Shown: positions 1,748-64,000, numbered from the stretch's first letter. The stretch: 64,000 nucleotides of DNA from Bacillota bacterium (GCA_021324975.1 JAJPIA010000085.1:58006-122005), one strand, 5' to 3'. Translations and numbers: made by a program. Notes: generated by a model not told the origin, from the letters alone.

Positions 1748-1892
1748 GCAACCGTCCTTCCCGCGGGCGATCCGCGGCAAGATTCTGCACGAGGACCGGT
1801 TTTCCTCTACTTCGGACGCGATTACGGTTGGCGCCCGGCCGCAATCGCGAGGCGTCGCGGCCGCGCGCGGTCTCGCGCCTCGCCGGGGCGCG

Positions 1893-2333
1893 TCACGGCC
1901 GCTCGAGCCTCCCGCGGAGGGCCGCAAGCATGCCGTCGAGGTTTTCCTTCATCTTGACGCGCAGGAGTTGGCTGAGCAGCGCGCCGATGAGCGGGATGCC
2001 GAATTCAAACTCCACGGTAATCGCGGTCCGCGTTCCGCCGTTCTCCGGCTCAAAGGACCACTCGCCTTCGTACCGCTCGAAGTCACCCTCGCGTTGCCGA
2101 AAGCGGCAGAGATGGCGGGCGTCGTCCCACGTGTCGTCCTCGGTCCAGCGAATACGGCGCCCCTCGACCGCCCCTACCCATTCCGTCCGGCTGGGCACGT
2201 CGCCGTCGCGCTCCAGGACGGTCACGCGCTCGAGGTCCGGCATGAACTGCGGGAAGTCTTCCACGCGTTTCGCCACCGCGTAGACTTGATCGAGCGGCGC
2301 TCGGATGAGCATCGACGCCTCGACGCGTGCCAT
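1893..2333 (-). CDS. SRPBCC / polyketide cyclase-dehydrase (START-like) family protein
   Basis: 146-aa ORF. MLIRAPLDQVYAVAKRVEDFPQFMP...YEGEWSFEP is a typical cyclase/dehydrase-fold pattern. Confidence 0.65.
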   Translation of the reverse strand: MARVEASMLIRAPLDQVYAVAKRVEDFPQFMPDLERVTVLERDGDVPSRTEWVGAVEGRRIRWTEDDTWDDARHLCRFRQREGDFERYEGEWSFEPENGGTRTAITVEFEFGIPLIGALLSQLLRVKMKENLDGMLAALRGRLERP

Positions 2334-2430
2334 GTGCCCCCCTTGTTATGATGCCGTCTGACGCCGGCGGCCGCAGACCATCGGGCCGCAGCGCCGCGGC
2401 CGCACCCTCACCCCGCTGCTTCCGCCGGCC

Positions 2431-3402
2431 TCACACGTGCAGTTCGATGACATCGCCGTCTTCGAGGACGTGCTCCCGCTGGACCATTTGGCCCTCGAAT
2501 GCGCGGGCCCCCCAGATGCGCGCATACTTGAGCCGCTCGACGAAGTCCTTGTGGACGGCCGCGCACGCGTCCGCCACGGTCGCGCCGCGCGGCAGGACAA
2601 ACGGAACGGATCGATCGGCGCGGCGGCCGGGGGCCTTGGTGTACACGCGGATCACGCGCAGCAACCCAAACAACTCCCGGCGCAGCGTCTCCAGTCCCGC
2701 GCCGGTCTCCGCGGAAACCGGCAGGATGTCGAAGCGCGCGCCCCACGCCTCGCGTAGGATCTCGAGGCGGACGGCCGCGCCGTCGGCGTCGAGCTTCGAC
2801 GCGACCATCAATGTCGGCACAGCGTCCTCCCCGCCGGTCCTCTCGAGACGCACCCTGGACTGCGCAGCCAGGTCCACGGTCGTGTCGATGCCGCTCAGCA
2901 GATCGTCGTCGGCCAGGTCGGCGACGAGCAGCGCCGCGTCCGCTTGGCGCACGAGGGCCAGCAACCATGGTTCCGCGCTCTCCGGCGCGATCGGCGGTAG
3001 GTCGACGAGCTGCACCTGGATGTCCTCGAACGGGACCATGCCGGGCAACGGGATCCGGGTCGAGAACGGATACGGCGCCACGACCGGCGCGGCGTGGCTC
3101 AATGCCGCCAGCAGGCGTGACTTGCCGGCGTTCGGCGGGCCGCCGAGCATGACCTGCCCGGCTCCCTCGCGCGGGACATGGTGCCAGGTCGGTCCTTTTC
3201 CCCCGGCCGTCTTGCGGCGCGCGGCCTCCGTCCGAGCCTTCGCCATCCGGCGCCGGATATCGGCGCGCATGTGTTCAGTGCCCTTGTGCTTGGGGATGAC
3301 GGCCATCATCGCCTCGAGAGCAGCCAGTTGCTCCTCGGGGTTGGTGGCTTGGCGGTACCGGCGTTCCGCCTCGAGATACTGCGGCGTCAGGTTCGCGGGC
3401 AT
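2431..3402 (-). CDS. Obg/DRG-like GTP-binding protein with C-terminal TGS domain
   Basis: 323-aa ORF with P-loop GGPPNAGKS and a C-terminal TGS-like segment (ATVADACAAVHKDFVERLKYARIWG...GDVIELHV). Confidence 0.75.
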   Translation of the reverse strand: MPANLTPQYLEAERRYRQATNPEEQLAALEAMMAVIPKHKGTEHMRADIRRRMAKARTEAARRKTAGGKGPTWHHVPREGAGQVMLGGPPNAGKSRLLAALSHAAPVVAPYPFSTRIPLPGMVPFEDIQVQLVDLPPIAPESAEPWLLALVRQADAALLVADLADDDLLSGIDTTVDLAAQSRVRLERTGGEDAVPTLMVASKLDADGAAVRLEILREAWGARFDILPVSAETGAGLETLRRELFGLLRVIRVYTKAPGRRADRSVPFVLPRGATVADACAAVHKDFVERLKYARIWGARAFEGQMVQREHVLEDGDVIELHV

Positions 3403-3560
3403 CGTCCAGGCTCAATTGTAGCAGAGGCGGTCCACGCCGCACCACGGCTACGACTTCGCCCTGGGCTGGATCAACGCGCACGGCGGTGTTCGGACAACCC
3501 CAACGCCGCGGCGGCGGTCAGCAGCAAGTACGGGGCCGCCTCGATGTTGGCAACGATAGG

Positions 3561-4526
3561 CTACGGGGCGGCCGGCCGGCCGGCCGCGAGATAGCGCGAC
3601 GGCAGCGCGTGGCCGAGCAAGGCGGCGAGCGGCCGCGAGGCTTCGCAGAGGCGGTCGAGGTCCACGCCCGTCTCGATGTCCATCCCGTCGAGCATGTACA
3701 CGAGATCCTCCGTGGCGAGGTTCCCCGAGGCGCCGGGCGCGTACGGGCATCCCCCGAGCCCGCCCGCGGCCGCATCGATCGTGGTGACGCCGCTCCACAG
3801 CGCGGTCAGGACGTTCGCGAGGGCCGTGCCTCTGGTATCGTGGAAGTGCACGGCGAGCGATCGAACCGGAACGTCCCGAACGAGCCGATCCAGCAGCGCC
3901 CACACCTCGTGCGGTGTGGCGGCGCCGATCGTGTCCCCGAGCGACACCTCGCGGCAGCCCATCTCGAGCAGGCGGCCGGCCACGCGGCGCACGGCATCCG
4001 ACCCAACGCGGCCCTCATACGGACACCACCAGGCGGTCGAGACGTAGGCACGCACGTGGGCGCCGTTCGCGGCGGCGAGGTCCACCACGCCCCGCGCGGC
4101 GCCGAGCGATTCGTCGATGCTCATATTGATGTTGCGCCGCGTAAAGGTCTCGGACGCCGCGGTGAACACCGCCACGTCCCTGAGGCCGCAGGCCATCGCT
4201 CGGACCATGCCGACCTGGTTCGGCACGAGCGCGGACAACTCGACCCCCTCCAGGGCGCCGAGGCGGCGCACCACGGCGTCCGTATCGGCCATCTGCGGCA
4301 CCCGATCCGGCCGTACGAACGCGCCGACCTCGATGGCCCGGAGCCCCGCGGCCGCGAGCCGGGAGATAAAGGCGACCTTGTCGGCGACGGTGAGCGGAGT
4401 GGATTCGTTTTGGAGGCCGTCGCGCGGGCCCACCTCGACGATCCGCACCCGTCCGGGCAGCCCGGCAAACGGCGTCGGCCGGAGCCGCGCGGGGCGCGTG
4501 GCCTCCACGACGGAGCCGACTGCCAT
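3561..4526 (-). CDS. Hydroxymethylglutaryl-CoA lyase
   Basis: ORF 3561..4967 trimmed to the ATG at 4526 (MAVGSVVE...). Motifs are VEVGPRDGLQNE, HFHDTRGTALAN and GLGGCPYAPGASGN. The start overlaps the upstream stop as TGATG. Confidence 0.9.
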   Translation of the reverse strand: MAVGSVVEATRPARLRPTPFAGLPGRVRIVEVGPRDGLQNESTPLTVADKVAFISRLAAAGLRAIEVGAFVRPDRVPQMADTDAVVRRLGALEGVELSALVPNQVGMVRAMACGLRDVAVFTAASETFTRRNINMSIDESLGAARGVVDLAAANGAHVRAYVSTAWWCPYEGRVGSDAVRRVAGRLLEMGCREVSLGDTIGAATPHEVWALLDRLVRDVPVRSLAVHFHDTRGTALANVLTALWSGVTTIDAAAGGLGGCPYAPGASGNLATEDLVYMLDGMDIETGVDLDRLCEASRPLAALLGHALPSRYLAAGRPAAP

Positions 4527-5035
4527 CAGCTCGCCCCGCCGCGCGGCACCGGCTCCAGCTGCGCGACCACCGCGTCCCCCTCGACGGGCTCCCCGACCGC
4601 GGCGCACAGCGCCCGCACCACGCCCGGAAACGGCGCGCGGACGACGTGCTCCATCTTCATCGCCTCCAGGGCCATGATCGGCTGCCCGGTCCTGACGGTC
4701 TCGCCGACCTGCACGTGGATCTTGACCACGAGGCCGGGCATCGGCGCCCGCAGGTCCCCGGACAGGGCCGACGGCGCCGTGGCGCCCGCCTCCGCGCGGG
4801 CCGTCTCCACCTCGATCGTCACGCCGTCGAGGTGCAGGTACGTGCGCCCGCCCCTGGGCGCGAAGTGCACGAGGCGGGCGCGGTCGCGGCATTCCACCAA
4901 CGCGAGGCCGGGCTCGAGGCGCGTGCAGCGGAACCGGTGGGTGCGGCCGCCGACGCGGACGACCCACGTGTCGCCCTCCCGCGAGGAGTCGCAGGCCACC
5001 GTGTCATCCCCCACCCGCAGCGTCCGCTCAGCCAT
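4526..5035 (-). CDS. Biotin carboxyl carrier (BT + BCCP) portion of the acyl-CoA carboxylase alpha subunit, encoded as a separate ORF
   Basis: 169-aa ORF with the biotinylation motif EAMKME in a lipoyl/biotinyl fold (PMPGLVVKIHVQVGETV...). It is in the same frame as the upstream biotin carboxylase ORF, separated by TGA plus 5 codons. Confidence 0.85.
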   Translation of the reverse strand: MAERTLRVGDDTVACDSSREGDTWVVRVGGRTHRFRCTRLEPGLALVECRDRARLVHFAPRGGRTYLHLDGVTIEVETARAEAGATAPSALSGDLRAPMPGLVVKIHVQVGETVRTGQPIMALEAMKMEHVVRAPFPGVVRALCAAVGEPVEGDAVVAQLEPVPRGGAS

Positions 5036-5050
5036 CCGCGCTTCGCGGCG

Positions 5051-6571
5051 TCACGCGCCGATCCGCCATGGGCCGATATGCGCCCACGGATCCCAGCCGA
5101 GCGGCGTCGCGCCGGCCGTTCCTCGATCTCGCGTCTCGTCCGCGTCCGGCTCGCCGCCGGCTTCCGCGAGCACGGCCGCCACCGCCGCCGCGAGCCCGTC
5201 CGCCTCGCCACGCCAGCCGGCGAAATACCGGCCGATGAACTGCGTCGTAGTGTCGCCGGCGCGGAACGCATCGTGCCGCACCACCGCGTGCAGGAACTCC
5301 AAGTTTGTGCGGCAGCCCAGGATGACGTACTGCGCGAGGGCCTCCCGCATCCGCGCGAGCGCATCGTCGCGGCTCTGCGCGTGCACGATCACCTTCGCCA
5401 GCAGCGGGTCGTACTCGGCCGGCACGCGCCAACCCGCGCGCAGGCCGGAGTCCACGCGCACCCCGGGGCCGCCCGGCTCCACAAGCGTCAGGATCGGCCC
5501 CGGCGTGGGCCGGAACCCTGCGGCGGGGTCCTCGGCACAGACGCGGCACTCAATCGCGTGCCCCCGGATCGGCACGGCGCGGGCCGCGCCCCGCGCCGCG
5601 CGGCCCGCCGGCAGCCGCTCCCCCGCCGCGATCCGCAGCTGCGTCGCGACGAGATCCGTCCCGGTCACGAGCTCCGTGACCGGGTGCTCGACCTGCAGCC
5701 GCGCGTTGACCTCGAGAAAGTACCAGTTGCGGTCCGCGTCCACGAGGAACTCCACGGTGCCCGCGTTCCGGTATCCGGCTTCCCGGGCAATCGCCACCGC
5801 CGCCTGCTCCAGACGCGCGCGGAGGCCGGCGGTCATGAACGGCGACGGCGCCTCCTCCACGAGCTTTTGATGCCGGCGCTGCACGCTGCACTCACGCTCG
5901 CCGAGTGCGACCACCGTGCCCGCACGGTCGGCGACGATCTGGACTTCCACATGATGGACGCCTTCGAGATGGTGTTCGAGCAACAGCGCGTCGCGATCAA
6001 AGGCCGCGCGGGCCTCGCGGCGCGCGGACGCGAGCGCGTCCCGCAGCGCCTCCGGCGCGTCCACCCGCCGCATGCCCAGGCCGCCGCCGCCCGCGGCGGC
6101 CTTGATCATCAGCGGAAAGCCGACCTGTGTCGCCGCGGCGACGAGCTCGTCGTCGGATGCGCCATCCCCGTCATAGCCGGGGACCGTGGGGACGCCGGCG
6201 CGCGCGGCAAGACGCCGCGCCTCGACCTTATCCCCGAGGCGCGCGATGACCTCGGCGGGCGGACCCACCCACACGAGGCTCGCCTCGCGTACGGCCGCCG
6301 CGAACGCCGCGGACTCGGCGAGAAAGCCGTACCCAGGATGGACCGCGTCCGCGCCGGCGCGCCGGGCGGCGTCGAGGAGGCGGTCGATGCTGAGATAGGT
6401 CTCGCGGCCCCCGGCCCCGCTGAGGGGCACGCGCACGTCCGCGAGGCGCGGGTGCAGGGCGTCCCGGTCGGGATCGGCGTAGACCGCGACCGAGCGCAGC
6501 CCCAGTTCGCGACACGCGCGGATGATGCGAACGGCGATCTCGCCGCGGTTCGCGACCAGCACGGTCTGCAT
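5051..6571 (-). CDS. Biotin carboxylase (ATP-grasp) portion of methylcrotonyl-CoA/acyl-CoA carboxylase alpha subunit
   Basis: ORF 5051..6913 trimmed to the ATG at 6571 (MQTVLVANRGEIAVRIIRACRELG...). ATP-grasp glycine loop AAAGGGGLGMR; EVNARLQVEHPVTE. Confidence 0.9.
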   Translation of the reverse strand: MQTVLVANRGEIAVRIIRACRELGLRSVAVYADPDRDALHPRLADVRVPLSGAGGRETYLSIDRLLDAARRAGADAVHPGYGFLAESAAFAAAVREASLVWVGPPAEVIARLGDKVEARRLAARAGVPTVPGYDGDGASDDELVAAATQVGFPLMIKAAAGGGGLGMRRVDAPEALRDALASARREARAAFDRDALLLEHHLEGVHHVEVQIVADRAGTVVALGERECSVQRRHQKLVEEAPSPFMTAGLRARLEQAAVAIAREAGYRNAGTVEFLVDADRNWYFLEVNARLQVEHPVTELVTGTDLVATQLRIAAGERLPAGRAARGAARAVPIRGHAIECRVCAEDPAAGFRPTPGPILTLVEPGGPGVRVDSGLRAGWRVPAEYDPLLAKVIVHAQSRDDALARMREALAQYVILGCRTNLEFLHAVVRHDAFRAGDTTTQFIGRYFAGWRGEADGLAAAVAAVLAEAGGEPDADETRDRGTAGATPLGWDPWAHIGPWRIGA

Positions 6572-56224: not shown

Positions 56225-56680
56225 TTAACTTGATGATTCCAGTGTCTGCACCAGCTTCACCAGGGCTTGTCGCGCGTCCGGCCATCGCAGCATGCCGACC
56301 GCTTCGTCTATCGGGAACCAGCCATACTGATCGTGCTCATCGTTCAGCTGAGGGTCCCAATTGATGCCCACCCGACCGGCAAATGCGTCGACCGTCACGG
56401 ACGTCACGTCCGGCGCGTACCAGGCGCGATATTCGGGCTCATCGTCGAGCATGTAGGCATAGCGGTGTTTGAGGTCGATAAGGCGATCTCCGAGCATCAG
56501 GCCCGTTTCCTCGCGTGTCTCCCGCACGGCCGCCTGGGCGCTCGTCTCCCCCGGATGCAACGCACCCGCGACGCCATGCCAGTATGCGCCTGCTGTGGGA
56601 GCGCGGTGAAGCAGCAGGACCTCATATCGCTCATTAACGCGCCGGTAGAGAAACACCAAACATTCGTGGGGAAGTCTCAC
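56225..56680 (-). CDS. Nudix hydrolase
   Basis: ORF 56225..56743 trimmed to the GTG at 56680 (SD GAAAGGA 6 nt upstream). Nudix box GALHPGETSAQAAVRETREETGL (GX5EX7REUXEEXGU). Confidence 0.85.
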   Translation of the reverse strand: MRLPHECLVFLYRRVNERYEVLLLHRAPTAGAYWHGVAGALHPGETSAQAAVRETREETGLMLGDRLIDLKHRYAYMLDDEPEYRAWYAPDVTSVTVDAFAGRVGINWDPQLNDEHDQYGWFPIDEAVGMLRWPDARQALVKLVQTLESSS

Positions 56681-56749
56681 GGTGGTCCTTTCGTCGTAGC
56701 GACTAGAGCGCCTTCCTACGCTGGCTTCCCCGGGGCGACACATACTGCA

Positions 56750-58276
56750 CTAATCATTTACAAACGCGCAGCCGCCGCGGGCCTTGCGCCCGAATACTTT
56801 TTTGTAGAGATCCTCGCCGTACGTGGTTTGCAGCGGCTCGCCTGGGACTACCTTGAACGTCCGGGTCCCACCCGGCCGCCGCTCCGCCCTTAGAAAGAGC
56901 GCATCTTCACTCCGCCGAGCGTGGAGGCCGTGCGCGAATGCGTACAAGTGCGTGACAAAAAAGACTTTGATGCCGCGCTCGGCGAGCGCCGAGGTGATCT
57001 GCCGTGCGATCTCCGAGCCCTCCCGCTCGTTCGTCGCCGCGAAGGATTCGTTGAACAGCATGAGCGCGTTGGGGTGGATCCGGTCTGCGATGTCGCTCAT
57101 GCGGCTGAGCTCTTCGTCGAATTTGCCGCTCTTCATGGACGGGTCTTCTTCCCGCTTGTAATGCGTGAAGAGACCGGAACACACATTGGCCCGGAACGAC
57201 GCGGCGGGCACGAACATACCGCACTGCATCATCAGCTGCGCCAGGCCGACACTGCGCAGAAAGGTGGACTTGCCGCCCTGGTTGGCGCCTGTGATGATCA
57301 CCGTGGTCCGGCCGTCGGCGTCCACGTCGTTGCCCACCACCCGCGATCCCACGGTCAGGCTCAAGCACACGTCGTACAGTCCGGCAAACGCATGCCGGCG
57401 TTGGTCCGCCCGCTCGGGAACGGGGAAGCATACCGGCTCGCCCTTGCGCGTGAGGTGCTCGTGGAGGTTCAGGCAGCCGACGTAGAAGGCCAGCTCGGCC
57501 CGCAGCATGGCGAAGAAGCTGAGGACGTGGTCGGCGGACTGCCCGAGCGCGTTCGCAACCAAGGCCACGCCTCGGTCCCGCAAGTCCGACAGGGCTCTCG
57601 CGCCCGCCTCGTCGCGGGGATGCAGGCGGTAGCTGTACGCCGGCGGCTTTTGCGCGAAGATGCGCTCGACCCAGCTCTGCGTGGTGTCGTGCGGCTTTCG
57701 GAGCACGTAGTTTGCGCCTTTGAGCCCCTGCCCCAATTCCGCGCTGACCAGCATGCCCTCGCGGAAGCGAAGCCGTCGCAGATGATCCCGAAGCTTGATG
57801 AAATAGCCGTCGTCGAGCTCGCGCCTGAGCGTTGCGAACAACCGCGTAAACCCCTCCGATTGGAACTCGTTGCCGTGCTCGTCGGCGACCTGTCGGAGGC
57901 GCCTGAGCAGGCCCTCGAATGCACCCAGCAAGTCCAGCGAGCGATGCAGGATGGTCCCTGGAGATCGAAAGACGGTCCAGTACCTCAGCTTCCGCTCTTC
58001 CAAGAACGCCTCGGTTGCGAGGCTATAGAGGCTTCGGACCGCGGCGGCGTTGTGGAGGCCATCCCGCAGCACGTCCTGCCGGTATCGGATCGCGTCCACG
58101 TCCGTCAAGCTGTCCAGCACGGCCGTCTGCACGACGCCGCGCACGAACTCATCGCCTCCTGCCATAGCGCCAAAGAGCGTGGCGAGTTCGAGATCCTGTG
58201 TGAGCGCCGGCGTATTCCACGGCAGCGGAGGTTGTACATCGAAATCACGATTGCGGTGCAGGAGGAATACCTTCAC
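56750..58276 (-). CDS. MutS-related ATPase (MutS domain V only, no mismatch-binding domain), subunit B
   Basis: 508-aa ORF with MutS-type Walker A ITGANQGGKSTFLRSVGLAQLMMQCGMFVPA, followed by MSDIADRIHPNALMLFNESFAATNEREG. There is no GxFxE mismatch-recognition N-domain. GTGA overlap with the upstream paralog. Confidence 0.85.
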   Translation of the reverse strand: MKVFLLHRNRDFDVQPPLPWNTPALTQDLELATLFGAMAGGDEFVRGVVQTAVLDSLTDVDAIRYRQDVLRDGLHNAAAVRSLYSLATEAFLEERKLRYWTVFRSPGTILHRSLDLLGAFEGLLRRLRQVADEHGNEFQSEGFTRLFATLRRELDDGYFIKLRDHLRRLRFREGMLVSAELGQGLKGANYVLRKPHDTTQSWVERIFAQKPPAYSYRLHPRDEAGARALSDLRDRGVALVANALGQSADHVLSFFAMLRAELAFYVGCLNLHEHLTRKGEPVCFPVPERADQRRHAFAGLYDVCLSLTVGSRVVGNDVDADGRTTVIITGANQGGKSTFLRSVGLAQLMMQCGMFVPAASFRANVCSGLFTHYKREEDPSMKSGKFDEELSRMSDIADRIHPNALMLFNESFAATNEREGSEIARQITSALAERGIKVFFVTHLYAFAHGLHARRSEDALFLRAERRPGGTRTFKVVPGEPLQTTYGEDLYKKVFGRKARGGCAFVND

Positions 58277-59844
58277 GATCCGATCCGCCGTTTCAGTTGA
58301 TCATAGGTGACCCGGTATCTCTCGGCAATCGACAGCGCGTAGGCGAGCCCGTCGGCCGCCGTTCTCACGACCTTGTAGGTGCGGACCGCGGGGTTGTCCG
58401 GGACGACGGCACTTACCATGCTGACGGTCTGCTCGCCGAGCGACGCCAGCTCGTCGATGAACGTGACGCACACGCACAGTAGGTCCAAGCGCATGATGGC
58501 GCCCATAATGTTCCGGCTCAGGAGGATGGCGTCGTCCAACACCGTCGACGTGAAGATCTCGTTCAGGATGATGATGCTGTCCGGTGTTGCCTGGTTCAGG
58601 ATCTTACGGATCCTCGCCAGGTCGTCTTCGAGCTTGCCCCGGAGCGTGGTGATGTCTTCTTCGCGCTCAAAGTGCGTGAAGAGCGCGTCGAACAGAAAGG
58701 TTCGCGCCTCCGTCCCGGCGACCGGGCAGCCGAGGCGGGCCAAATAGTGAAGTTGTCCGAACGTGCGGGCAAGCGTGGTCTTGCCGCCCTGGTTCGGACC
58801 GGATACCACGAGGATACGCTCGGGTCCGCGAAGGTAGAAGTCGTTGCAGACCACCGGCGACTTTTCCGGAATCAGCAGCTGGGCCAGGGCGAAGTCGTAG
58901 CCGTCGCGGCACAGCACGGCCTTGCTCTTGGAAACGCGCGGATAACACACGCTCAAGCCCGCGTTCCGGAACCGCGCGACGTACTCGAGGTACGCGATGT
59001 AAAATTGGATCTCCCGGTCAAAGGTGCGGATGACGCCGTCCTGGTATTCGCGGTGCTCGGTCCGGAACTCGTCGAGGCGGCGAAACTCCTCCGGCCACAG
59101 TTGGGCGGCGAACCCGACCACGGCGGCTTCGATGTGGTTCATGTCTCGCGCGCTGGTGAAGGAGACCGCGTAGTCGGTCACCGCGCCCTGCTTGAATCGC
59201 TCGAACGCTTGGACCACGTCGGCGCTGTAGTCGGCTTCGCCTTCGTACCGGCGGACGGTGAAACTGTCGCCCCGGATCAGGATGCAGTAGCGGATCGTGG
59301 CCAACCCTTGCTTGACCGATTGGATGTCCGCGACGAGCGATTGGAAGCGGTCAGACGCCACGTAACCCCGTAGATAGTCGCGGAACGCGACGAGGCCCCT
59401 TGCTCGCAACGGGGCGCCGTCCAAATCATGGGCCAGGGCGGTGGCGGTCTCGCAATAGAGCGCCGCCGCGTCCAGAAACCAGCTGTCCCTTTGCTGCTGA
59501 TAGTAGAACTTCTCGGCCTGCGTCAGGTGCTCGCGCATGGTCCGCATACGCTGCGCGAACGCCCGCAGGCACTCCAACACCGGGACGCGTTCGAGGTCCT
59601 GAAACACGTCGTGCCGGTACTCGATGTCGTCGAGGGTATCGAGCGGAGCGTGGAAGAACGGCCTGAGATTGTACTCGTCCTTGCCGGCCGTGACCGCTTC
59701 AACGATTTGGTCGAGATTGAGATCGGGAAAGCATTCGGGTACCTCGCCCCGCTCGACGCGCCCCTCGACTCTTTGCCATAAGATGCTGCGGAACGACGCC
59801 TCGGTGGCGGCGACGTCGGCCGGATGGATGGGGTTCGTGGCCAT
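58273..59844 (-). CDS. MutS-related ATPase (MutS domain V only), subunit A
   Basis: ORF 58273..59880 trimmed to the ATG at 59844 (MATNPIHPADV...), with SD GGAGG 10 nt upstream. Walker A VSGPNQGGKTTLARTFGQLHYLARLGCPVAG; SIIILNEIFTSTVLDD. The longer TTG start would lie inside the terminator U-tract. Confidence 0.85.
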   Translation of the reverse strand: MATNPIHPADVAATEASFRSILWQRVEGRVERGEVPECFPDLNLDQIVEAVTAGKDEYNLRPFFHAPLDTLDDIEYRHDVFQDLERVPVLECLRAFAQRMRTMREHLTQAEKFYYQQQRDSWFLDAAALYCETATALAHDLDGAPLRARGLVAFRDYLRGYVASDRFQSLVADIQSVKQGLATIRYCILIRGDSFTVRRYEGEADYSADVVQAFERFKQGAVTDYAVSFTSARDMNHIEAAVVGFAAQLWPEEFRRLDEFRTEHREYQDGVIRTFDREIQFYIAYLEYVARFRNAGLSVCYPRVSKSKAVLCRDGYDFALAQLLIPEKSPVVCNDFYLRGPERILVVSGPNQGGKTTLARTFGQLHYLARLGCPVAGTEARTFLFDALFTHFEREEDITTLRGKLEDDLARIRKILNQATPDSIIILNEIFTSTVLDDAILLSRNIMGAIMRLDLLCVCVTFIDELASLGEQTVSMVSAVVPDNPAVRTYKVVRTAADGLAYALSIAERYRVTYDQLKRRIGS

Positions 59845-59873
59845 TAGCAATGAGCCTCCAACCCAGCGAGCGG

Positions 59874-59913
59874 ACAACAAAAAAGCCTCTACGGTCTCGC
59901 GATCCCGTAGAAG
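59874..59913 (-). terminator. Intrinsic terminator acting as expression platform of the minus-strand fluoride riboswitch
   Basis: Minus-strand RNA CUUCUACGG-GAUCGCGAGA-CCGUAGAGG, a 9-bp stem with one G-U pair, followed by CUUUUUUGUUGU. The 5' arm reuses the aptamer pseudoknot strand GCUUCUAC. It ends about 30 nt before the ATG at 59844. Confidence 0.85.
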
Positions 59914-59962
59914 CTATCGGTCGCCGGACACCCCGGCGACGGTTTAGGCGAGCTTCATCGCC
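59907..59962 (-). promoter_or_regulatory. Fluoride riboswitch aptamer (crcB RNA motif), minus strand
   Basis: RNA GGCGA-UGAAGC-UCGCC-UAAAC-C-GUCGCCGG-GGUGU-CCGGCGAC-CGAUA-GCUUC-UAC. It has a P1 hairpin, an AAAC linker, a P3 hairpin and a GAUA...CUAC 3' tail. The tail GCUUC pairs with loop GAAGC as a pseudoknot. This is the architecture and conserved nucleotides I recall for the crcB motif. Confidence 0.88.
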
Positions 59963-59981
59963 TCGGATCTCGTGCGCTCAC

Positions 59982-60011
59982 ATTATAGGGGCGTCGAAAA
60001 GACTCCGTCAA
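59982..60011 (-). promoter_or_regulatory. Sigma-70-type promoter for the riboswitch/MutS-like transcript
   Basis: On the minus strand: TTGACG (60011..60006), 18-nt spacer, TATAAT (59987..59982). The predicted TSS is about 12 nt upstream of aptamer P1. Confidence 0.7.
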
Positions 60012-60176
60012 TCGGCGCCGCCGGACCGCGGACGGCAGGGGTGACCGCCGTACGGCTCCTCCATGCGACGCCATCACCGCGAGGGAACAGTTACCGGACT
60101 GCATCGAATTGAGCGCCCACGCCGAACGCGCCAACGACGGTGCGCTGCGGCGGGATCAAACTCGCCCAGAGCTGCG

Positions 60177-60206
60177 TTGACAGGCTGCTTCGTTTGGAAA
60201 TACCAT
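60177..60206 (+). promoter_or_regulatory. Sigma-70-type promoter for the plus-strand riboswitch/MFS transcript
   Basis: TTGACA (60177..60182), 18-nt spacer, TACCAT (60201..60206). The predicted TSS is a few nt upstream of the plus-strand aptamer. Confidence 0.55.
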
Positions 60207-60217
60207 GAACGCATCAC

Positions 60218-60266
60218 GGTGATGAGGCTCACCGAAACTGCCGGGCGACCGGCTGATAGCCTCTAC
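60218..60266 (+). promoter_or_regulatory. Fluoride riboswitch aptamer (crcB RNA motif), plus strand
   Basis: RNA GGUGA-UGAGGC-UCACC-GAAAC-U-GCCGG-GCGA-CCGGC-UGAUA-GCCUC-UAC. It has the same architecture as the minus-strand copy, with pseudoknot GAGGC/GCCUC and a GNRA-capped P3. The GAUGAGGC...AAACUGCC...GCUGAU.GCCUCUAC string closely matches the well-studied Thermotoga aptamer as I remember it. Confidence 0.88.
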
Positions 60267-60296
60267 CCGGTACGGGCGGGGGCTTCTGCATGTGTG
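60259..60296 (+). terminator. Candidate terminator/expression platform of the plus-strand riboswitch
   Basis: GCCUCUACCCG-GUA-CGGGCGGGGGC, an 11-position stem with one A.C mismatch and two G-U pairs, followed by UUCUGCAUGUGU. The 5' arm again contains the pseudoknot strand. The U-tract is weak. Confidence 0.45.
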
Positions 60297-60486
60297 GCGG
60301 CCTCTCCCCTCGTGCTTCCTCCGATTACGCGCCGACTTGCGATTCACGGATACGCGCGCCGCGTATGCCGCGGGCGCGCCGACCAAGAGAACGTGCCGCC
60401 GTGACGAAGGATCCGTGTATCGCGTTTCTCACGGAGTCGCAGATGTTTACGAGCAATGCCACGAACTCAGGGGGACATTCCCTATC

Positions 60487-61740
60487 ATGGCGGTTCCCGT
60501 AGCCCGGCCGGCAGGCCGGGAAGCGGCCCGCGCCGCGGCGCTCCGGTTCGTGGTGCTGCTGGGCGTCGTGAGCATGTTCTCCGACATGACGCACGAGGGC
60601 GCCCGCGGCATCACGGGGCCGTTTCTGGGCATGCTCGGGGCGAGCGCGCTGATCGTGGCGACCGTCGCGGGCGTCGGGGAGTTCTTGGGGTATGCGCTGC
60701 GCTTTCTGTTCGGTTCCCTGGCCGACCGGACCGGCATGTATTGGCCGATTACCTTGGTTGGATATACGATTCAAATGCTGGCCGTTCCGGCGCTCGCGCT
60801 GGTGGGGCATTGGCCGGCCGCGGCGCTGTTGATCGTGACGGAACGCTCCGGGCGGGCCATGCGAAATCCGCCGCGGGATGCAATGCTCGCACACGCCACT
60901 TGCGGGCTCGGCGCGGGCTGGGTCTTTGGCCTGCGCGAAGCGCTGGACGCGGCCGGCGCGATGATCGGCCCCCTGATCGTGGCGGCAACCGTTTACGTGC
61001 GAGGGGGGTATCGGTTGGGCTTCGCGGTCCTGATCGTCCCCGCGTTGCTCACCCTCATCGTACTCCTGAGCGCCTGGCGGCAGTATCCCCGACCGCACGA
61101 CCTCGGCGCCCCAGAGCGCATCCCGCAGGCCGCGGGTATCCCGCGTGTGTTTTGGATCTACCTGGGGGGCATGGCGCTCGTCGCGGCAGCCTATGTCGAC
61201 TACCCGCTCGCGGCGTATCACTTCGCCAGGAGCGGCGCGGTGCCACCCGCCTGGATCCCGATCTTGTATGCGGTAGCCATGGCAGCCGAAGCGGCCGGGG
61301 CGCTCGCGCTCGGGCGTCTCTTCGACCGCATCGGCCTCGCCACCGTGGTGTGGGCGACGGCGGCCACCGCGTTCTTCGGGCCGTTCATCTTCCTCGGCAA
61401 CACCGTGCTCGTTGTTCTCGGAATGGTCCTGTGGGGACTGGGCATAGCGGCGCAAGAGTCCGTTGTCAAAGCCGCCGTTACCGGCATGGTCGGCGCCGAG
61501 CGGCGAGCGTCTGCCTACGGTCTCTTCGACGCCGGCTTTGGCACGGCATGGATGCTCGGGAGCGTCGCGCTCGGGGTACTCTACAACCTGTCCGTGTACG
61601 CGCTGGTCGCCTTCACGGTGCTGCTGCAGCTCGCCGCGCTCCCTGTCTTCGCGGCGACCAGGCGGGCCATGCCAACGGAGCCTGTCCAAGGGCGGAGCCG
61701 CGGCAACTTCCCTGGGAACCGCGGTGACGGCACACGCTAA
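60487..61740 (+). CDS. Major facilitator superfamily (MFS) transporter
   Basis: ORF 60292..61740 trimmed to the ATG at 60487 (MAVPVARPAGREAARAAALRFVVLLGVVSMFSDMTHEG...), with AGGGGGA upstream. It has about 12 hydrophobic segments with a central loop. It is the only plus-strand gene in the window. Confidence 0.8.
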   Translation: MAVPVARPAGREAARAAALRFVVLLGVVSMFSDMTHEGARGITGPFLGMLGASALIVATVAGVGEFLGYALRFLFGSLADRTGMYWPITLVGYTIQMLAVPALALVGHWPAAALLIVTERSGRAMRNPPRDAMLAHATCGLGAGWVFGLREALDAAGAMIGPLIVAATVYVRGGYRLGFAVLIVPALLTLIVLLSAWRQYPRPHDLGAPERIPQAAGIPRVFWIYLGGMALVAAAYVDYPLAAYHFARSGAVPPAWIPILYAVAMAAEAAGALALGRLFDRIGLATVVWATAATAFFGPFIFLGNTVLVVLGMVLWGLGIAAQESVVKAAVTGMVGAERRASAYGLFDAGFGTAWMLGSVALGVLYNLSVYALVAFTVLLQLAALPVFAATRRAMPTEPVQGRSRGNFPGNRGDGTR

Positions 61741-62147
61741 GCGTGGCGAGGGTTAGGACGTCCACCTCGGGCGCGCGGTCGCTCCGACGCGGCGTCGGGT
61801 AGGATCGCGGCTCGCACCCGCTCCAACGCGTCCTGGACTGCGGCCACGTCGCGTGGCGACGGTGCTTCCAATCCGTACCGCACATGACTGTACAGGTCCG
61901 TGAGCGTCTCGATGGCAACCGAAGCGGCCGGTCGATACGAGCTTACCATGTGCGCTAACTCGGCGGGCGTCTGGCTCTTGGGGCGGCGTGCTCCCAACGT
62001 GTCTGCGAGACCGAGGAACTCGGCGTACGCCCGCCGGACGATGGCGGCCGTACCAGCCCCGAAATCTTGGCCGATACCCGTGGTGTCCCGCGCGCGTCGG
62101 CGGAAGAGATCGTGCCAAGACGCACGGAGATCCGTCCAGGACCACAC
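61737..62147 (-). CDS. DUF4129 domain protein (C-terminal module normally fused to a membrane N-terminus)
   Basis: 136-aa ORF (GTG start). The pattern RRAYAEFLGLADTLGARRPKSQTPAELAHMV...LTDLYSHVRYG matches DUF4129 as I recall it. It is in frame with the upstream membrane ORF across a single TAG. Confidence 0.6.
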   Translation of the reverse strand: MWSWTDLRASWHDLFRRRARDTTGIGQDFGAGTAAIVRRAYAEFLGLADTLGARRPKSQTPAELAHMVSSYRPAASVAIETLTDLYSHVRYGLEAPSPRDVAAVQDALERVRAAILPDAASERPRARGGRPNPRHA

Positions 62148-62150
62148 CGA

Positions 62151-63299
62151 CTAGCGCACGATGTCGGCGGGGTGGCGCCGGCCCACCCGCTCATACCGAA
62201 ATACAGACCGGGCAATCAGCAGCAATACGACTGCCAGCAAGGCCAGCGCCGCCCCCCACCGTAGCGCTGCGGCCGCTTCGGGCGGTAATCCAGCCGTGTG
62301 CCCCTGAGACAATTGTTGCAGCCACGCCGCGGGCGACGGCGAGGGCATCGGCTGCACGGCGTGGGGATGCAGCATACGGCGGATCGCCCAGACAATTCCC
62401 GAGAGAACGAACCCGATCGGCACGGCGATCACATAGAGGAGCGCAAGCAGCACCGCATCCAATGCCGGCGCCACGGCGCGAAAGACAGCCGCGACATCGA
62501 GCCGCAATACGGCGCCTGCGAGCGTGGCGACGACCAGTACGGCGGCCGCGGCCCCTACCACCAGCGCGTACCAGTCCGCCGTCACCGCGGCGTTTTGCTG
62601 TGACGCGCGAGTCTGACGGTGCACGGACTGCAACCGCGCAATCGGTAGCGCGATCAGGCTGACGAGGAAGAACCCAAGCAGATACGGAAAACCGGCCGCC
62701 GCCGCGGCGGTGAGCGGAGGAACCGTGTGCCCGGCCGCCATCACGGCAGCGAACACGCCAAACGCCGCGAGCCCGAGCGTGAAGATGGTCTCGACGTCGT
62801 AGTATTCGAGCGTCGTGCGGCCGATCACGAGCGCACGGCGCCACACCAGCATCGCGAAGACCCACGCCGGCAGCTCCGGGCGTGCCCCGGCCAGGATCGA
62901 GACCAGCCACTCGCGGGCCGGGCCGTGCAGGAGGCGCCAGGCCGGATCAGCGCGGTATTGCCAGACGACGGCCAATGCCCCGGCCGCGGCGCCTCCCACG
63001 ACCAGCGCGACGCGGGCTGGCGCGATGCGCGCCCCGGCAGGGCGCGATAGGCCCGCTCGGCCCACGATTTGCCCGCCGGCAAGCAACACGCAGACGGTCA
63101 CCGGAGCGAGCAGGCTCGACGGGGCGCCGAGCCAGATCGTGCCCGCGAGGATGGCGTACGGGACAATCCACGCAGCGTCCATCGCCGCCACGAGCAACGG
63201 CAGGGTCCATCCCGGCGAGTCGGGCGCGCCGCTCCCCGCCGCAGCCGACCGGGACCTGTTCTCGGAAGGGTCCTCTCGCGTCCGCAGCACCGATCGCAT
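62151..63299 (-). CDS. Multi-pass membrane protein (N-terminal module of a DUF4129-type protein in a MoxR/DUF58 operon)
   Basis: 382-aa ORF with numerous hydrophobic helices. It starts 8 nt after the DUF58 stop and ends at a TAG that is in frame with the DUF4129 ORF. Confidence 0.7.
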   Translation of the reverse strand: MRSVLRTREDPSENRSRSAAAGSGAPDSPGWTLPLLVAAMDAAWIVPYAILAGTIWLGAPSSLLAPVTVCVLLAGGQIVGRAGLSRPAGARIAPARVALVVGGAAAGALAVVWQYRADPAWRLLHGPAREWLVSILAGARPELPAWVFAMLVWRRALVIGRTTLEYYDVETIFTLGLAAFGVFAAVMAAGHTVPPLTAAAAAGFPYLLGFFLVSLIALPIARLQSVHRQTRASQQNAAVTADWYALVVGAAAAVLVVATLAGAVLRLDVAAVFRAVAPALDAVLLALLYVIAVPIGFVLSGIVWAIRRMLHPHAVQPMPSPSPAAWLQQLSQGHTAGLPPEAAAALRWGAALALLAVVLLLIARSVFRYERVGRRHPADIVR

Positions 63300-63306
63300 C
63301 TCGGGC

Positions 63307-64000
63307 CTACGCCAGCGCTACGCGGCGCACGTCACGCCACGCGTCCTCGCCGCGCACCTCGAATACCGGGAGGTCATCGGCGGTGACCGTCCGGGCGTCC
63401 GAGCCAATCACTACGAGACCCGCGGACCTTCCCGTGCGTCTGGCCGCTCGCAGGGCTTCGACGGCTTCCGGTTCCGGCACGGCCGTGATCGCGAGCACGC
63501 TCGTCCCCCAGGGGAGGGCCGGCATCTCCGCCGCGAGCAGTTCCTCCAGCGGCGTCGTCGCCACCGGGGCCACCGTAGCGAGCGCTTCGAGCACGGTCTG
63601 CAGCTGCTGCGGATGGTCGCTCGGGGGAACGGCAATCGTCGCCATGCCCGCGCCACGGAAGCGGGGACCGTTGACGTAGAGGCCAACCGGAAGTTTCTGC
63701 TCCGCACTCCATGCGGCGACCGACGCGGCCACGATGATCGCCACCTCGACGAGCAGCGGATCGTACCCCGCCCACCAGGCGTGCCCCCGCAGCGTGTGCA
63801 TGTCCAGAAAGAGCGCAAGGCGCGGGTGGGTCGTCGGCTCGAAGATCTTGACGTGCAGCCGCCGAAGTCGGGCGGACGCCTTCCAGTGGATACGCCGGAG
63901 CGAGTCGCCGGCCTCATAGGGGCGCACGCCGGCAAGATGCGCGGGGTCCTCCCAAAGCGTGCGCGGCGCGATGAGATCTCCGAACGGGCCCTGCGCGTCC
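63307..64000 (-). CDS. DUF58 (vWA-like) protein, N-terminus beyond the window end
   Basis: The frame of ORF 63307..63927 stays open to position 64000 (DAQGPFGDLIAPRTLWEDPAHLAGVRPYEAGDSLRRIHWKASAR...). The R.Y..GD..R.I.WK block is the DUF58 hallmark. Confidence 0.8.
   Translation of the reverse strand, partial: DAQGPFGDLIAPRTLWEDPAHLAGVRPYEAGDSLRRIHWKASARLRRLHVKIFEPTTHPRLALFLDMHTLRGHAWWAGYDPLLVEVAIIVAASVAAWSAEQKLPVGLYVNGPRFRGAGMATIAVPPSDHPQQLQTVLEALATVAPVATTPLEELLAAEMPALPWGTSVLAITAVPEPEAVEALRAARRTGRSAGLVVIGSDARTVTADDLPVFEVRGEDAWRDVRRVALA

Follow-up and report, generated by a model that had tools for sequence, protein, structure and literature searches.

Why should a gene class so faithfully tied to fluoride riboswitches encode a pair of MutS-like ATPases, for which no function in fluoride stress has been reported since 2010? 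The question is raised by a locus in a 64,000-nucleotide (nt) stretch of DNA from a Bacillota bacterium (GCA_021324975.1 JAJPIA010000085.1:58006-122005; hereafter the window), in which a fluoride riboswitch on the minus strand precedes two overlapping genes for MutS-like ATPases and a gene for a Nudix hydrolase. We conclude, with a probability of roughly 0.8, that the locus is a standard module of the fluoride regulon, in which a transcriptional ON riboswitch controls an operon encoding the proteins known as MutS4A and MutS4B. The sequence and structure elements of the leader, their conservation and their genomic linkage to the pair are observed directly, and from these we infer fluoride binding and antitermination by this leader. 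There is nothing unusual about the RNA element or its ON-switch logic, both of which are real, and the riboswitch itself is textbook. Within the fluoride regulon, MutS4A/MutS4B is a member already published and still unexplained in function, of which this copy is an ordinary example; what is new here is the obligate pairing of A with B, the approximately 80% linkage to riboswitches, the Walker B asparagine in both subunits, the asymmetric H-loop, and the copies on conjugative plasmids.

Searching the entire window with Rfam 15 at its gathering thresholds, we obtained two matches, both to the fluoride riboswitch family RF01734 (59971-59901 on the minus strand and 60209-60272 on the plus strand). 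The match in front of the ATPase genes covers the full model (positions 1-64) and scores 38.6 bits, the gathering score being 34 (whole-window E = 3.7e-7); with a custom covariance model, R1, it reaches 52.6 bits. A crcB/fluoride aptamer had been proposed here in a first-pass annotation made from the sequence, and the covariance search bears this out. All of its parts could be located: P1 is formed by GGCGA and UCGCC (59962-59958 with 59951-59947), P3 is a helix of 8 base pairs (bp) (59940-59933 with 59927-59920), and the pseudoknot joins GAAGCU in the P1 loop (59956-59951) to AGCUUC in the 3' strand (59915-59910). Both helices and the pseudoknot show covariation in an alignment of 16 aptamers, in which 96% of cells are paired (none of 500 shuffles reaches this level) and 10 of the 14 helix and pseudoknot pairs have double changes. 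The pseudoknot is paired in 100% of these aptamers, with compensatory changes in four of its six pairs. The leader is also kept in the nearest relative of this locus, L081, from the -35 box through the start codon (86 to 91% identical), and P3 shows a compensatory change from U-A to C-G between the two.

The signals on either side of the aptamer are those expected of a riboswitch-controlled transcript. Upstream, a -35 box (TTGACG, 60011-60006) and a -10 box (TATAAT, 59987-59982) match the consensus at 11 of 12 positions, in agreement with the promoter originally proposed. The promoter scan found three promoter-like sites in the 4.6-kb region, where 0.7 would be expected, and the leader promoter is identical in L081. 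Transcription is predicted to start at about 59975-59978, roughly 5 nt 5' of the aptamer. Downstream, the expected ribosome-binding (Shine-Dalgarno) sequence GGAGG (59859-59855) and the ATG start codon at 59844 follow about 30 nt after a terminator. The order of promoter, aptamer, terminator on the pseudoknot strand, Shine-Dalgarno sequence and ATG within the 5' untranslated region (5' UTR) is the placement typical of RF01734 with a competing expression platform. Compared with RF01734 elements that carry an overlapping terminator, this leader has the same aptamer architecture, ON logic and 5' UTR position; it differs in having C for a near-invariant U before GAU, a long 8-bp P3, and a second riboswitch lying back-to-back with it.

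The terminator hairpin consists of AGCUUCUACGG, a 10-nt loop and CCGUAGAGGCU, followed by the U tract UUUUUGUUGU. Its stem is longer than the 9 bp assigned to it in the first-pass annotation, which had otherwise identified the terminator and its U tract correctly. The hairpin alone has a folding free energy of -17.4 kcal/mol, and the 56-nt terminator region folds with a z-score of -3.65, with none of 200 shuffles folding equally well. A simple terminator scan overlooks this hairpin because its loop is 10 nt long; it was found by folding. The 5' arm of the hairpin (59915-59905) opens with the 6-nt 3' strand of the pseudoknot, and the pseudoknot and the terminator are therefore mutually exclusive. 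Folding thus upholds the common strand on which the proposed ON-switch logic was based. In line with this arrangement, Weinberg et al. (2010) reasoned that terminators overlapping the crcB motif predict ON switches (PMC2864571). Without fluoride, AGCUUCUACGG would pair with CCGUAGAGGCU, and the hairpin with its U tract would halt RNA polymerase some 30 nt short of the ATG. When fluoride is bound via Mg2+, the first six bases of the hairpin, AGCUUC, would be engaged in the pseudoknot with the loop of P1; with these bases sequestered no terminator would form, and polymerase would continue into mutS4A. MutS4A and MutS4B would then be produced in a fixed ratio by translational coupling at a GTGA overlap, and the Nudix gene would probably be expressed along with the pair.

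Riboswitches accompany the same genes elsewhere, too. We surveyed 80 loci with MutS4A homologs, the best-scoring of at least 575, which span more than 15 phyla (Chloroflexota, Desulfobacterota, Firmicutes, Acidobacteriota, Actinomycetota, Verrucomicrobiota, Bacteroidota, Atribacterota and others) and also cover Alpha-, Beta- and Gammaproteobacteria and one archaeon, a Woesearchaeote. At the Rfam gathering score, the first 13 loci yielded 14 riboswitches. The custom covariance model, built from these 14 and the two window copies, gave 129 matches in the 80 loci; it gave no further match in the remaining 62 kb of the window and, in 43 kb of control loci unrelated to these, no score over 12 bits. 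At least one riboswitch is present in 66 of the 80 loci. In 64 it lies upstream on the MutS4A strand, so that the neighborhood survey suggested in the first-pass annotation came out in favor of the association, and in 46 it lies no more than 350 nt from the MutS4A start. Among these 46 MutS4A-proximal riboswitches, 25 have a terminator that starts at AGCCUCUAC and is followed by a U tract, as in the window. MutS4B follows MutS4A in 79 of the 80 loci, with a gap of 0 to 12 nt in 70. For comparison, a 2024 review of fluoride resistance, in which MutS is absent, gives riboswitch control for only about 15% of Fluc genes and about 30% of CLC-F genes (PMC11139923). The riboswitch-MutS association as such is already known, because Weinberg et al. 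(2010) reported crcB motifs upstream of genes "involved in DNA repair (mutS)" (PMC2864571), in agreement with what the first-pass annotation had stated; the supplements of that study gave no match for mutS, Nudix or MFS. Two loci have two riboswitches in series ahead of the same genes, in tandem in L053 (2198-2511) and flanking a DUF190 gene in L002 (1924-2519).

The two controlled genes overlap as GTGA at 58276-58273, where the stop codon of the first meets the start codon of the second, just as had been described for this pair of open reading frames. By their sequences, we identify the encoded ATPases as the MutS4A and MutS4B of Lin, Nei and Ma (2007), who defined MutS4 by proteins that contain MutSac as their sole domain and by adjacent copies, MutS4A and MutS4B (PMC2190696). 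In that account, the two are neighboring paralogs, the stop codon of A overlapping the start codon of B; they form a separate subfamily of unstudied function and are distributed patchily in bacteria and archaea through horizontal transfer (PMC2190696). The window pair has the same domain content, GTGA-type overlap and gene order, and differs in nothing essential; the Walker B asparagine, the H-loop asymmetry, the MutS2-like lever and core, and the approximately 80% riboswitch linkage are added here to the 2007 description. Orthology to pairs from the genera that the paper names is supported by 57% identity to one from Thermoanaerobacter (L003) and 45% identity to a copy on a Mycobacterium plasmid, comparators other than the paper's own reference sequences. 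At E ≤ 1e-10, the homologs of each protein number at least 8000, with approximately 55 to 69% identity across phyla. The N-terminal 300 residues of MutS4A, which are specific to it, match 1444 representatives of 50%-identity clusters at the same threshold, nearly all of them about 510 amino acids (aa) long. One database protein (P0262), 1026 aa long, joins MutS4A to MutS4B, and its B half is 54% identical to the window MutS4B; either the fusion is genuine or it is an artifact of a frameshift at the overlapping stop and start. Our literature search found no paper assigning a fluoride-related function to MutS4 proteins, in accord with the earlier statement that none is established.

Pfam sees MutS_V alone in both proteins, and the first-pass annotation accordingly described them as containing only MutS domain V. 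To this view structural comparison adds a second part. We modeled MutS4A with AlphaFold from 20 sequences (mean predicted local distance difference test [pLDDT] 63) and MutS4B from 58 sequences (pLDDT 78; predicted template modeling score 0.79). In both models, the N-terminal part is long and helical and contains a short insert that is poorly predicted; the ATPase domain comes after it. With Foldseek both align over essentially their full length to MutS-family structures, the matches beginning in the core/lever region. The top match of MutS4A is the Thermus MutS2 core (7vuk/7vuf; E = 4e-11), while MutS4B matches MSH3, MSH2, MutS and MutS2 best (E down to 2e-16; template modeling score up to 0.61), and the MutS2-disome complex 7qv3 ranks high in both lists. 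A weak MutS_III match is also present in 6 of 20 MutS4A homologs. The proteins are thus not limited to domain V, since the fold matches run across essentially the full length; according to the models, both keep a core/lever with a reduced clamp besides the ATPase domain, in a MutS2-like arrangement. The pair does not have MutS domains I (mismatch binding) and II (connector) or the KOW and Smr domains of MutS2, and both proteins stop after the ATPase domain. With neither a mismatch-binding nor a connector domain, the complex is not expected to be a mismatch sensor.

The nucleotide-binding motifs set the pair apart. In a survey of 78 MutS4A and 70 MutS4B sequences, Walker B reads Asn-Glu instead of Asp-Glu in every one (78/78 and 70/70), an assignment supported by alignments to MutS2, MSH3 and Taq MutS. 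The H-loop histidine is replaced by phenylalanine in all 78 MutS4A sequences and retained in all 70 MutS4B sequences. The corresponding residues in the window are Asn428-Glu429 and Phe462 in MutS4A, and Asn409-Glu410 and His443 in MutS4B; Walker A is GPNQGGKTT in MutS4A and GANQGGKST in MutS4B. Taken with the strict A-B order and the coupling of translation, this difference makes it most likely that the pair forms an asymmetric heterodimeric MutS-type clamp ATPase with nonequivalent nucleotide sites. To judge by the alignments, both sites have a remodeled Mg2+ ligand. The same Asp-to-Asn change was engineered in E. coli MutS (D693N; PDB 3k0s), where it left the Mg2+ site empty with ADP, weakened ATP binding approximately 15-fold, made the ATPase strongly Mg dependent and reduced repair (PMC2857095). 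What is an engineered defect there is the conserved wild type in MutS4.

What such a complex might do under fluoride stress is a more speculative matter. We infer that it acts on nucleic acid, more likely DNA than the ribosome. When the MutS4 operon of Mycobacterium yongonense was placed in M. smegmatis, recombinants increased 2- to 3-fold, and the M. yongonense island also has enolase and hydrogenase/NADH-dehydrogenase genes, classes typical of fluoride riboswitches (PMC5742357). By analogy with D693N, one may speculate that the Walker B asparagine is an adaptation of the nucleotide switch to fluoride. MutS4A/MutS4B would then be a dedicated fluoride-stress clamp ATPase in which weakened Mg2+ binding in the ADP state lets cycling persist under metal fluoride, an idea to which we give a small chance. 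Under this idea, Mg-fluoride species, AlF4- or BeF3- would lock ordinary P-loop nucleoside triphosphatases and would spare MutS4, and the pair would address a nucleic acid lesion specific to fluoride, for example repair or replication factors or ribosome-bound GTPases trapped as complexes of nucleoside diphosphate and metal fluoride. Such complexes do form in canonical MutS, as the presence of MutS-ADP-BeF3 (PDB 1nne) among the fold matches illustrates. If the idea were true, a riboswitch coupling of approximately 80%, compared with approximately 15 to 30% for exporters, would mark an overlooked core effector. A pair that shields DNA or translation from metal-fluoride poisoning would represent a new layer of fluoride toxicity and resistance, with relevance to organofluorine biodegradation and the engineering of organofluorine biosynthesis.

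Several observations weigh against the account given so far. The Rfam score of the leader aptamer exceeds the gathering score by only 4.6 bits. At alignment column 125 (window position 59919), where U stands in 106 of 115 aptamers (92%), this one has C, and since the column covaries with column 14, where the window has A, the aptamer contains an A-C mismatch. No riboswitch was found within 5 kb in 14 of the 80 loci, and the 80% linkage may be an overestimate because the survey took the top-scoring loci out of at least 575. Confidence in the MutS4A model is low (pLDDT 63), and neither model predicts its clamp region well. The choice of DNA over the ribosome as the site of action rests on one weak published experiment, and co-transcription of the Nudix gene by read-through, which we consider probable, on an absence of signal. 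Five alternative readings of the locus were weighed.

The first is that the Nudix hydrolase is an integral third component, functionally linked to the pair. Its start is the GTG at 56680, 69 nt past the MutS4B stop, as supported by an identical 151-aa database entry and by L081. The protein matches Pfam NUDIX at 63 bits and PRK09438 at 78.6 bits, compared with a cutoff of 103, and its top match in the PDB is E. coli NudB (2o1c; E = 5e-8). The gene lies on the same strand as the pair, and the 69-nt spacer is as the first-pass annotation had it: scans found no promoter-like or terminator-like site in it, and it folds less stably than its shuffled versions (z = +2.0), so that read-through into the gene is plausible. 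In L081, the gene likewise follows directly after MutS4B and its product is 91% identical at the aa level. A functional link would also make sense biochemically. Nudix enzymes are Mg dependent and fluoride sensitive, and compensatory induction, as for enolase and pyrophosphatase (PPase), could be expected. We nevertheless consider integral membership unlikely. A tblastn search found no homolog of the gene in any of the 80 MutS4 loci, which speaks against the earlier suggestion that it might belong to the system; by Pfam, NUDIX is absent from the first genes behind 76 neighboring riboswitches and from the genes after MutS4B in 60 loci; and a metagenome scan returned only the same relative, L081. 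The next homologs (approximately 48% identity; L087-L091) lie in a conserved cluster of a GAF/HWE histidine kinase, in some cases a YCII protein, the Nudix protein and an ANTAR response regulator, where we found no riboswitch. This context hints at a signaling-linked role for this Nudix subfamily. Since it is absent from MutS4 loci outside this lineage, we regard the Nudix gene as a passenger of this lineage only, possibly co-induced with the pair.

A second possibility, slightly less likely again, is that the pair resembles MutS2 (RqcU) and splits ribosomes that stall or collide as fluoride poisons translational GTPases or depletes GTP and phosphoenolpyruvate. The MutS2 core is the best fold match of MutS4A, and the disome complex ranks high for both proteins; MutS2 itself sets the precedent of a MutS paralog that lacks domain I and can act on ribosomes, and genes for dynamin-like GTPases are frequent neighbors of the pair. 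The MutS2 core (7vuf, 7vuk, 7qv3) and MutS4 also share the absence of domains I and II and the combination of lever/clamp and ATPase. However, MutS2 is a homodimer with KOW, an Smr endonuclease and a canonical Asp-Glu Walker B, whereas MutS4 is a probable heterodimer that ends after the ATPase. The pair scores 60.5 and 74.1 bits with TIGR01069 (MutS2), far below the cutoff of 400, and matches MutS, MSH2 and MSH3 folds about as well. Moreover, no ribosome-related neighbors were found in MutS4 loci, and the sole published experiment points to DNA recombination (PMC5742357).

Third, the aptamer could be degenerate through the U-to-C tertiary change, leaving the leader as a constitutive attenuator or a weak responder. 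In favor of this are the C in place of a U shared by 92% of 115 aptamers and the modest Rfam score. Columns 125 and 14 (window 59919 and 59958) are unpaired and covary, being mostly A/U, with G/C in L071 and L044 and U/A in L064 and L065, a pattern consistent with a tertiary base pair. An A-C pair at this place might weaken binding or make it pH dependent. On the other hand, the A/C combination is also found in L081 (twice), L055 and L044, and that it recurs in three more elements (L081's second riboswitch and one each in L055 and L044) argues against decay. The conserved core (GGCGAUG..., AAC, CUGAUG, CUAC) is otherwise complete, and L081 conserves the rest of the core, the helices and the terminator, all of them intact here. 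We therefore find degeneration doubtful.

Far less probable is the reading suggested by the database name "DNA mismatch repair protein MutS" and by the MutS_V domain, namely that the genes encode ordinary MutS and that fluoride induces mismatch repair. The proteins have no domain I or II and are approximately 510 aa long rather than approximately 800 to 850 aa; their scores with the NCBIfam MutS equivalogs are 56 to 67 bits against cutoffs of 480 to 642, and they fall far under every NCBIfam MutS, MutS2 and KamC equivalog cutoff. Their Walker B is Asn-Glu instead of Asp-Glu, and Lin et al. assign the pair to a subfamily of its own (PMC2190696). Least probable of all is that the pair serves anti-phage defense or mobile-element maintenance and lies near riboswitches by chance, as its patchy, transfer-driven distribution, its plasmid copies and its ABC/AAA-like ATPases might suggest, since PADLOC gives no match for MutS4A or MutS4B, the direct linkage to a fluoride riboswitch is 80%, and the neighbors include enolase, PPase, CrcB and antiporters.

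We thus retain the reading of the locus as a fluoride riboswitch module controlling MutS4A and MutS4B. Its features are collected below with those of its surroundings.

Positions of the features of the MutS4 locus, counted from the first letter of the window
Feature	Position	Strand	Basis
Sigma-70-type promoter, TTGACG-18 nt-TATAAT	60011-59982	-	function predicted
Fluoride riboswitch aptamer: P1, P3, pseudoknot	59971-59901	-	Rfam RF01734
Intrinsic terminator: 11-bp stem, 10-nt loop, U5GUUGU	59915-59874	-	folding
MutS4A, 523 aa; core/lever with small clamp insert, then MutS domain V ATPase	59844-58273	-	Pfam, fold model
MutS4B, 508 aa; GTG start, architecture as MutS4A	58276-56750	-	Pfam, fold model
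Nudix hydrolase, 151 aa; NudB/dATP-pyrophosphohydrolase-like	56680-56225	-	Pfam, PDB match
Divergent promoter-like site and second fluoride riboswitch aptamer	60177-60206; 60209-60272	+	RF01734, 40.6 bits
MFS_1 transporter, 417 aa; ATG 60487	60487-61740	+	Pfam; start by homology

The second riboswitch, which the first-pass annotation did not report, lies back-to-back with the leader riboswitch and in front of a transporter gene of the major facilitator superfamily (MFS). It has a hairpin on its pseudoknot strand with no U tract after it. The nearest relative, L081 (MutS4A 89% and MutS4B 92% identical), has the same order of riboswitch, A, B and Nudix, and the 1.7-kb module of second riboswitch and MFS gene (60025-61758) is missing there, its place being taken by 79 nt. 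Homologs of the MFS protein with approximately 50% identity are found in seven other MutS4 loci, in three of them directly behind a riboswitch, making MFS a candidate new class of riboswitch-linked transporter. L081 also has a third fluoride riboswitch (46.8 bits) before an operon of a MoxR-type AAA_3 ATPase, DUF58 and DUF4129 (1872-5748), immediately upstream of the MutS4 leader; of that operon, the window includes just the DUF4129 end (61759-62993, minus strand), the rest lying past position 64000.

The surveyed MutS4 loci are fluoride islands. By Pfam, the first genes behind neighboring riboswitches in these loci encode Dynamin_N (7), Na_H_Exchanger (6), Enolase (5), MFS_1 (5), NADHdh (5), DUF190 (4), CRCB (3), Metallophos (3), DUF6062 (3) and PPase (1). 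The 64-kb window has no homolog of the loci's CrcB, CLC-F, enolase or PPase. The dynamin-family GTPases (approximately 550 to 600 aa), which thus are the commonest first genes behind neighboring fluoride riboswitches, are also the only recurrent genes directly after MutS4B (L017, L025, L038, L046, L058, L066 and L073). A conserved small third gene after MutS4B was considered and rejected, as the open reading frames of approximately 100 aa found there do not cluster.

Islands of this kind are also carried on mobile DNA, with MutS4A present on 45 plasmids. On the conjugative Klebsiella pneumoniae plasmid NZ_CP017986 (L085, 91940-111391), an operon of riboswitch, cation:proton antiporter, universal stress protein (USP), MutS4A and MutS4B is convergent to ppaC-uspA-eno-gpmA-crcB-ATPase. 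One operon of this island is the experimentally characterized FRM operon of Enterobacter cloacae; the MutS genes lay outside that study (PMC5533749). The FRM island and its counterpart on Klebsiella IncF/IncHI1B plasmids have clustered riboswitch-driven operons in common with the window; they differ in having CrcB, enolase and PPase, whereas the partners in the window are the MFS transporter and the Nudix hydrolase. Because genetics is easy in these hosts, the conjugative-plasmid copies of Klebsiella, Enterobacter and E. coli would be better test systems than the window locus. Further tractable carriers are Paraburkholderia phenazinium LMG 2247 and plasmids of Rhodococcus. In E. coli, the pair is carried by plasmid NZ_CP067312 of 027_SK3, and 1 of 5426 complete genomes of the species has it.

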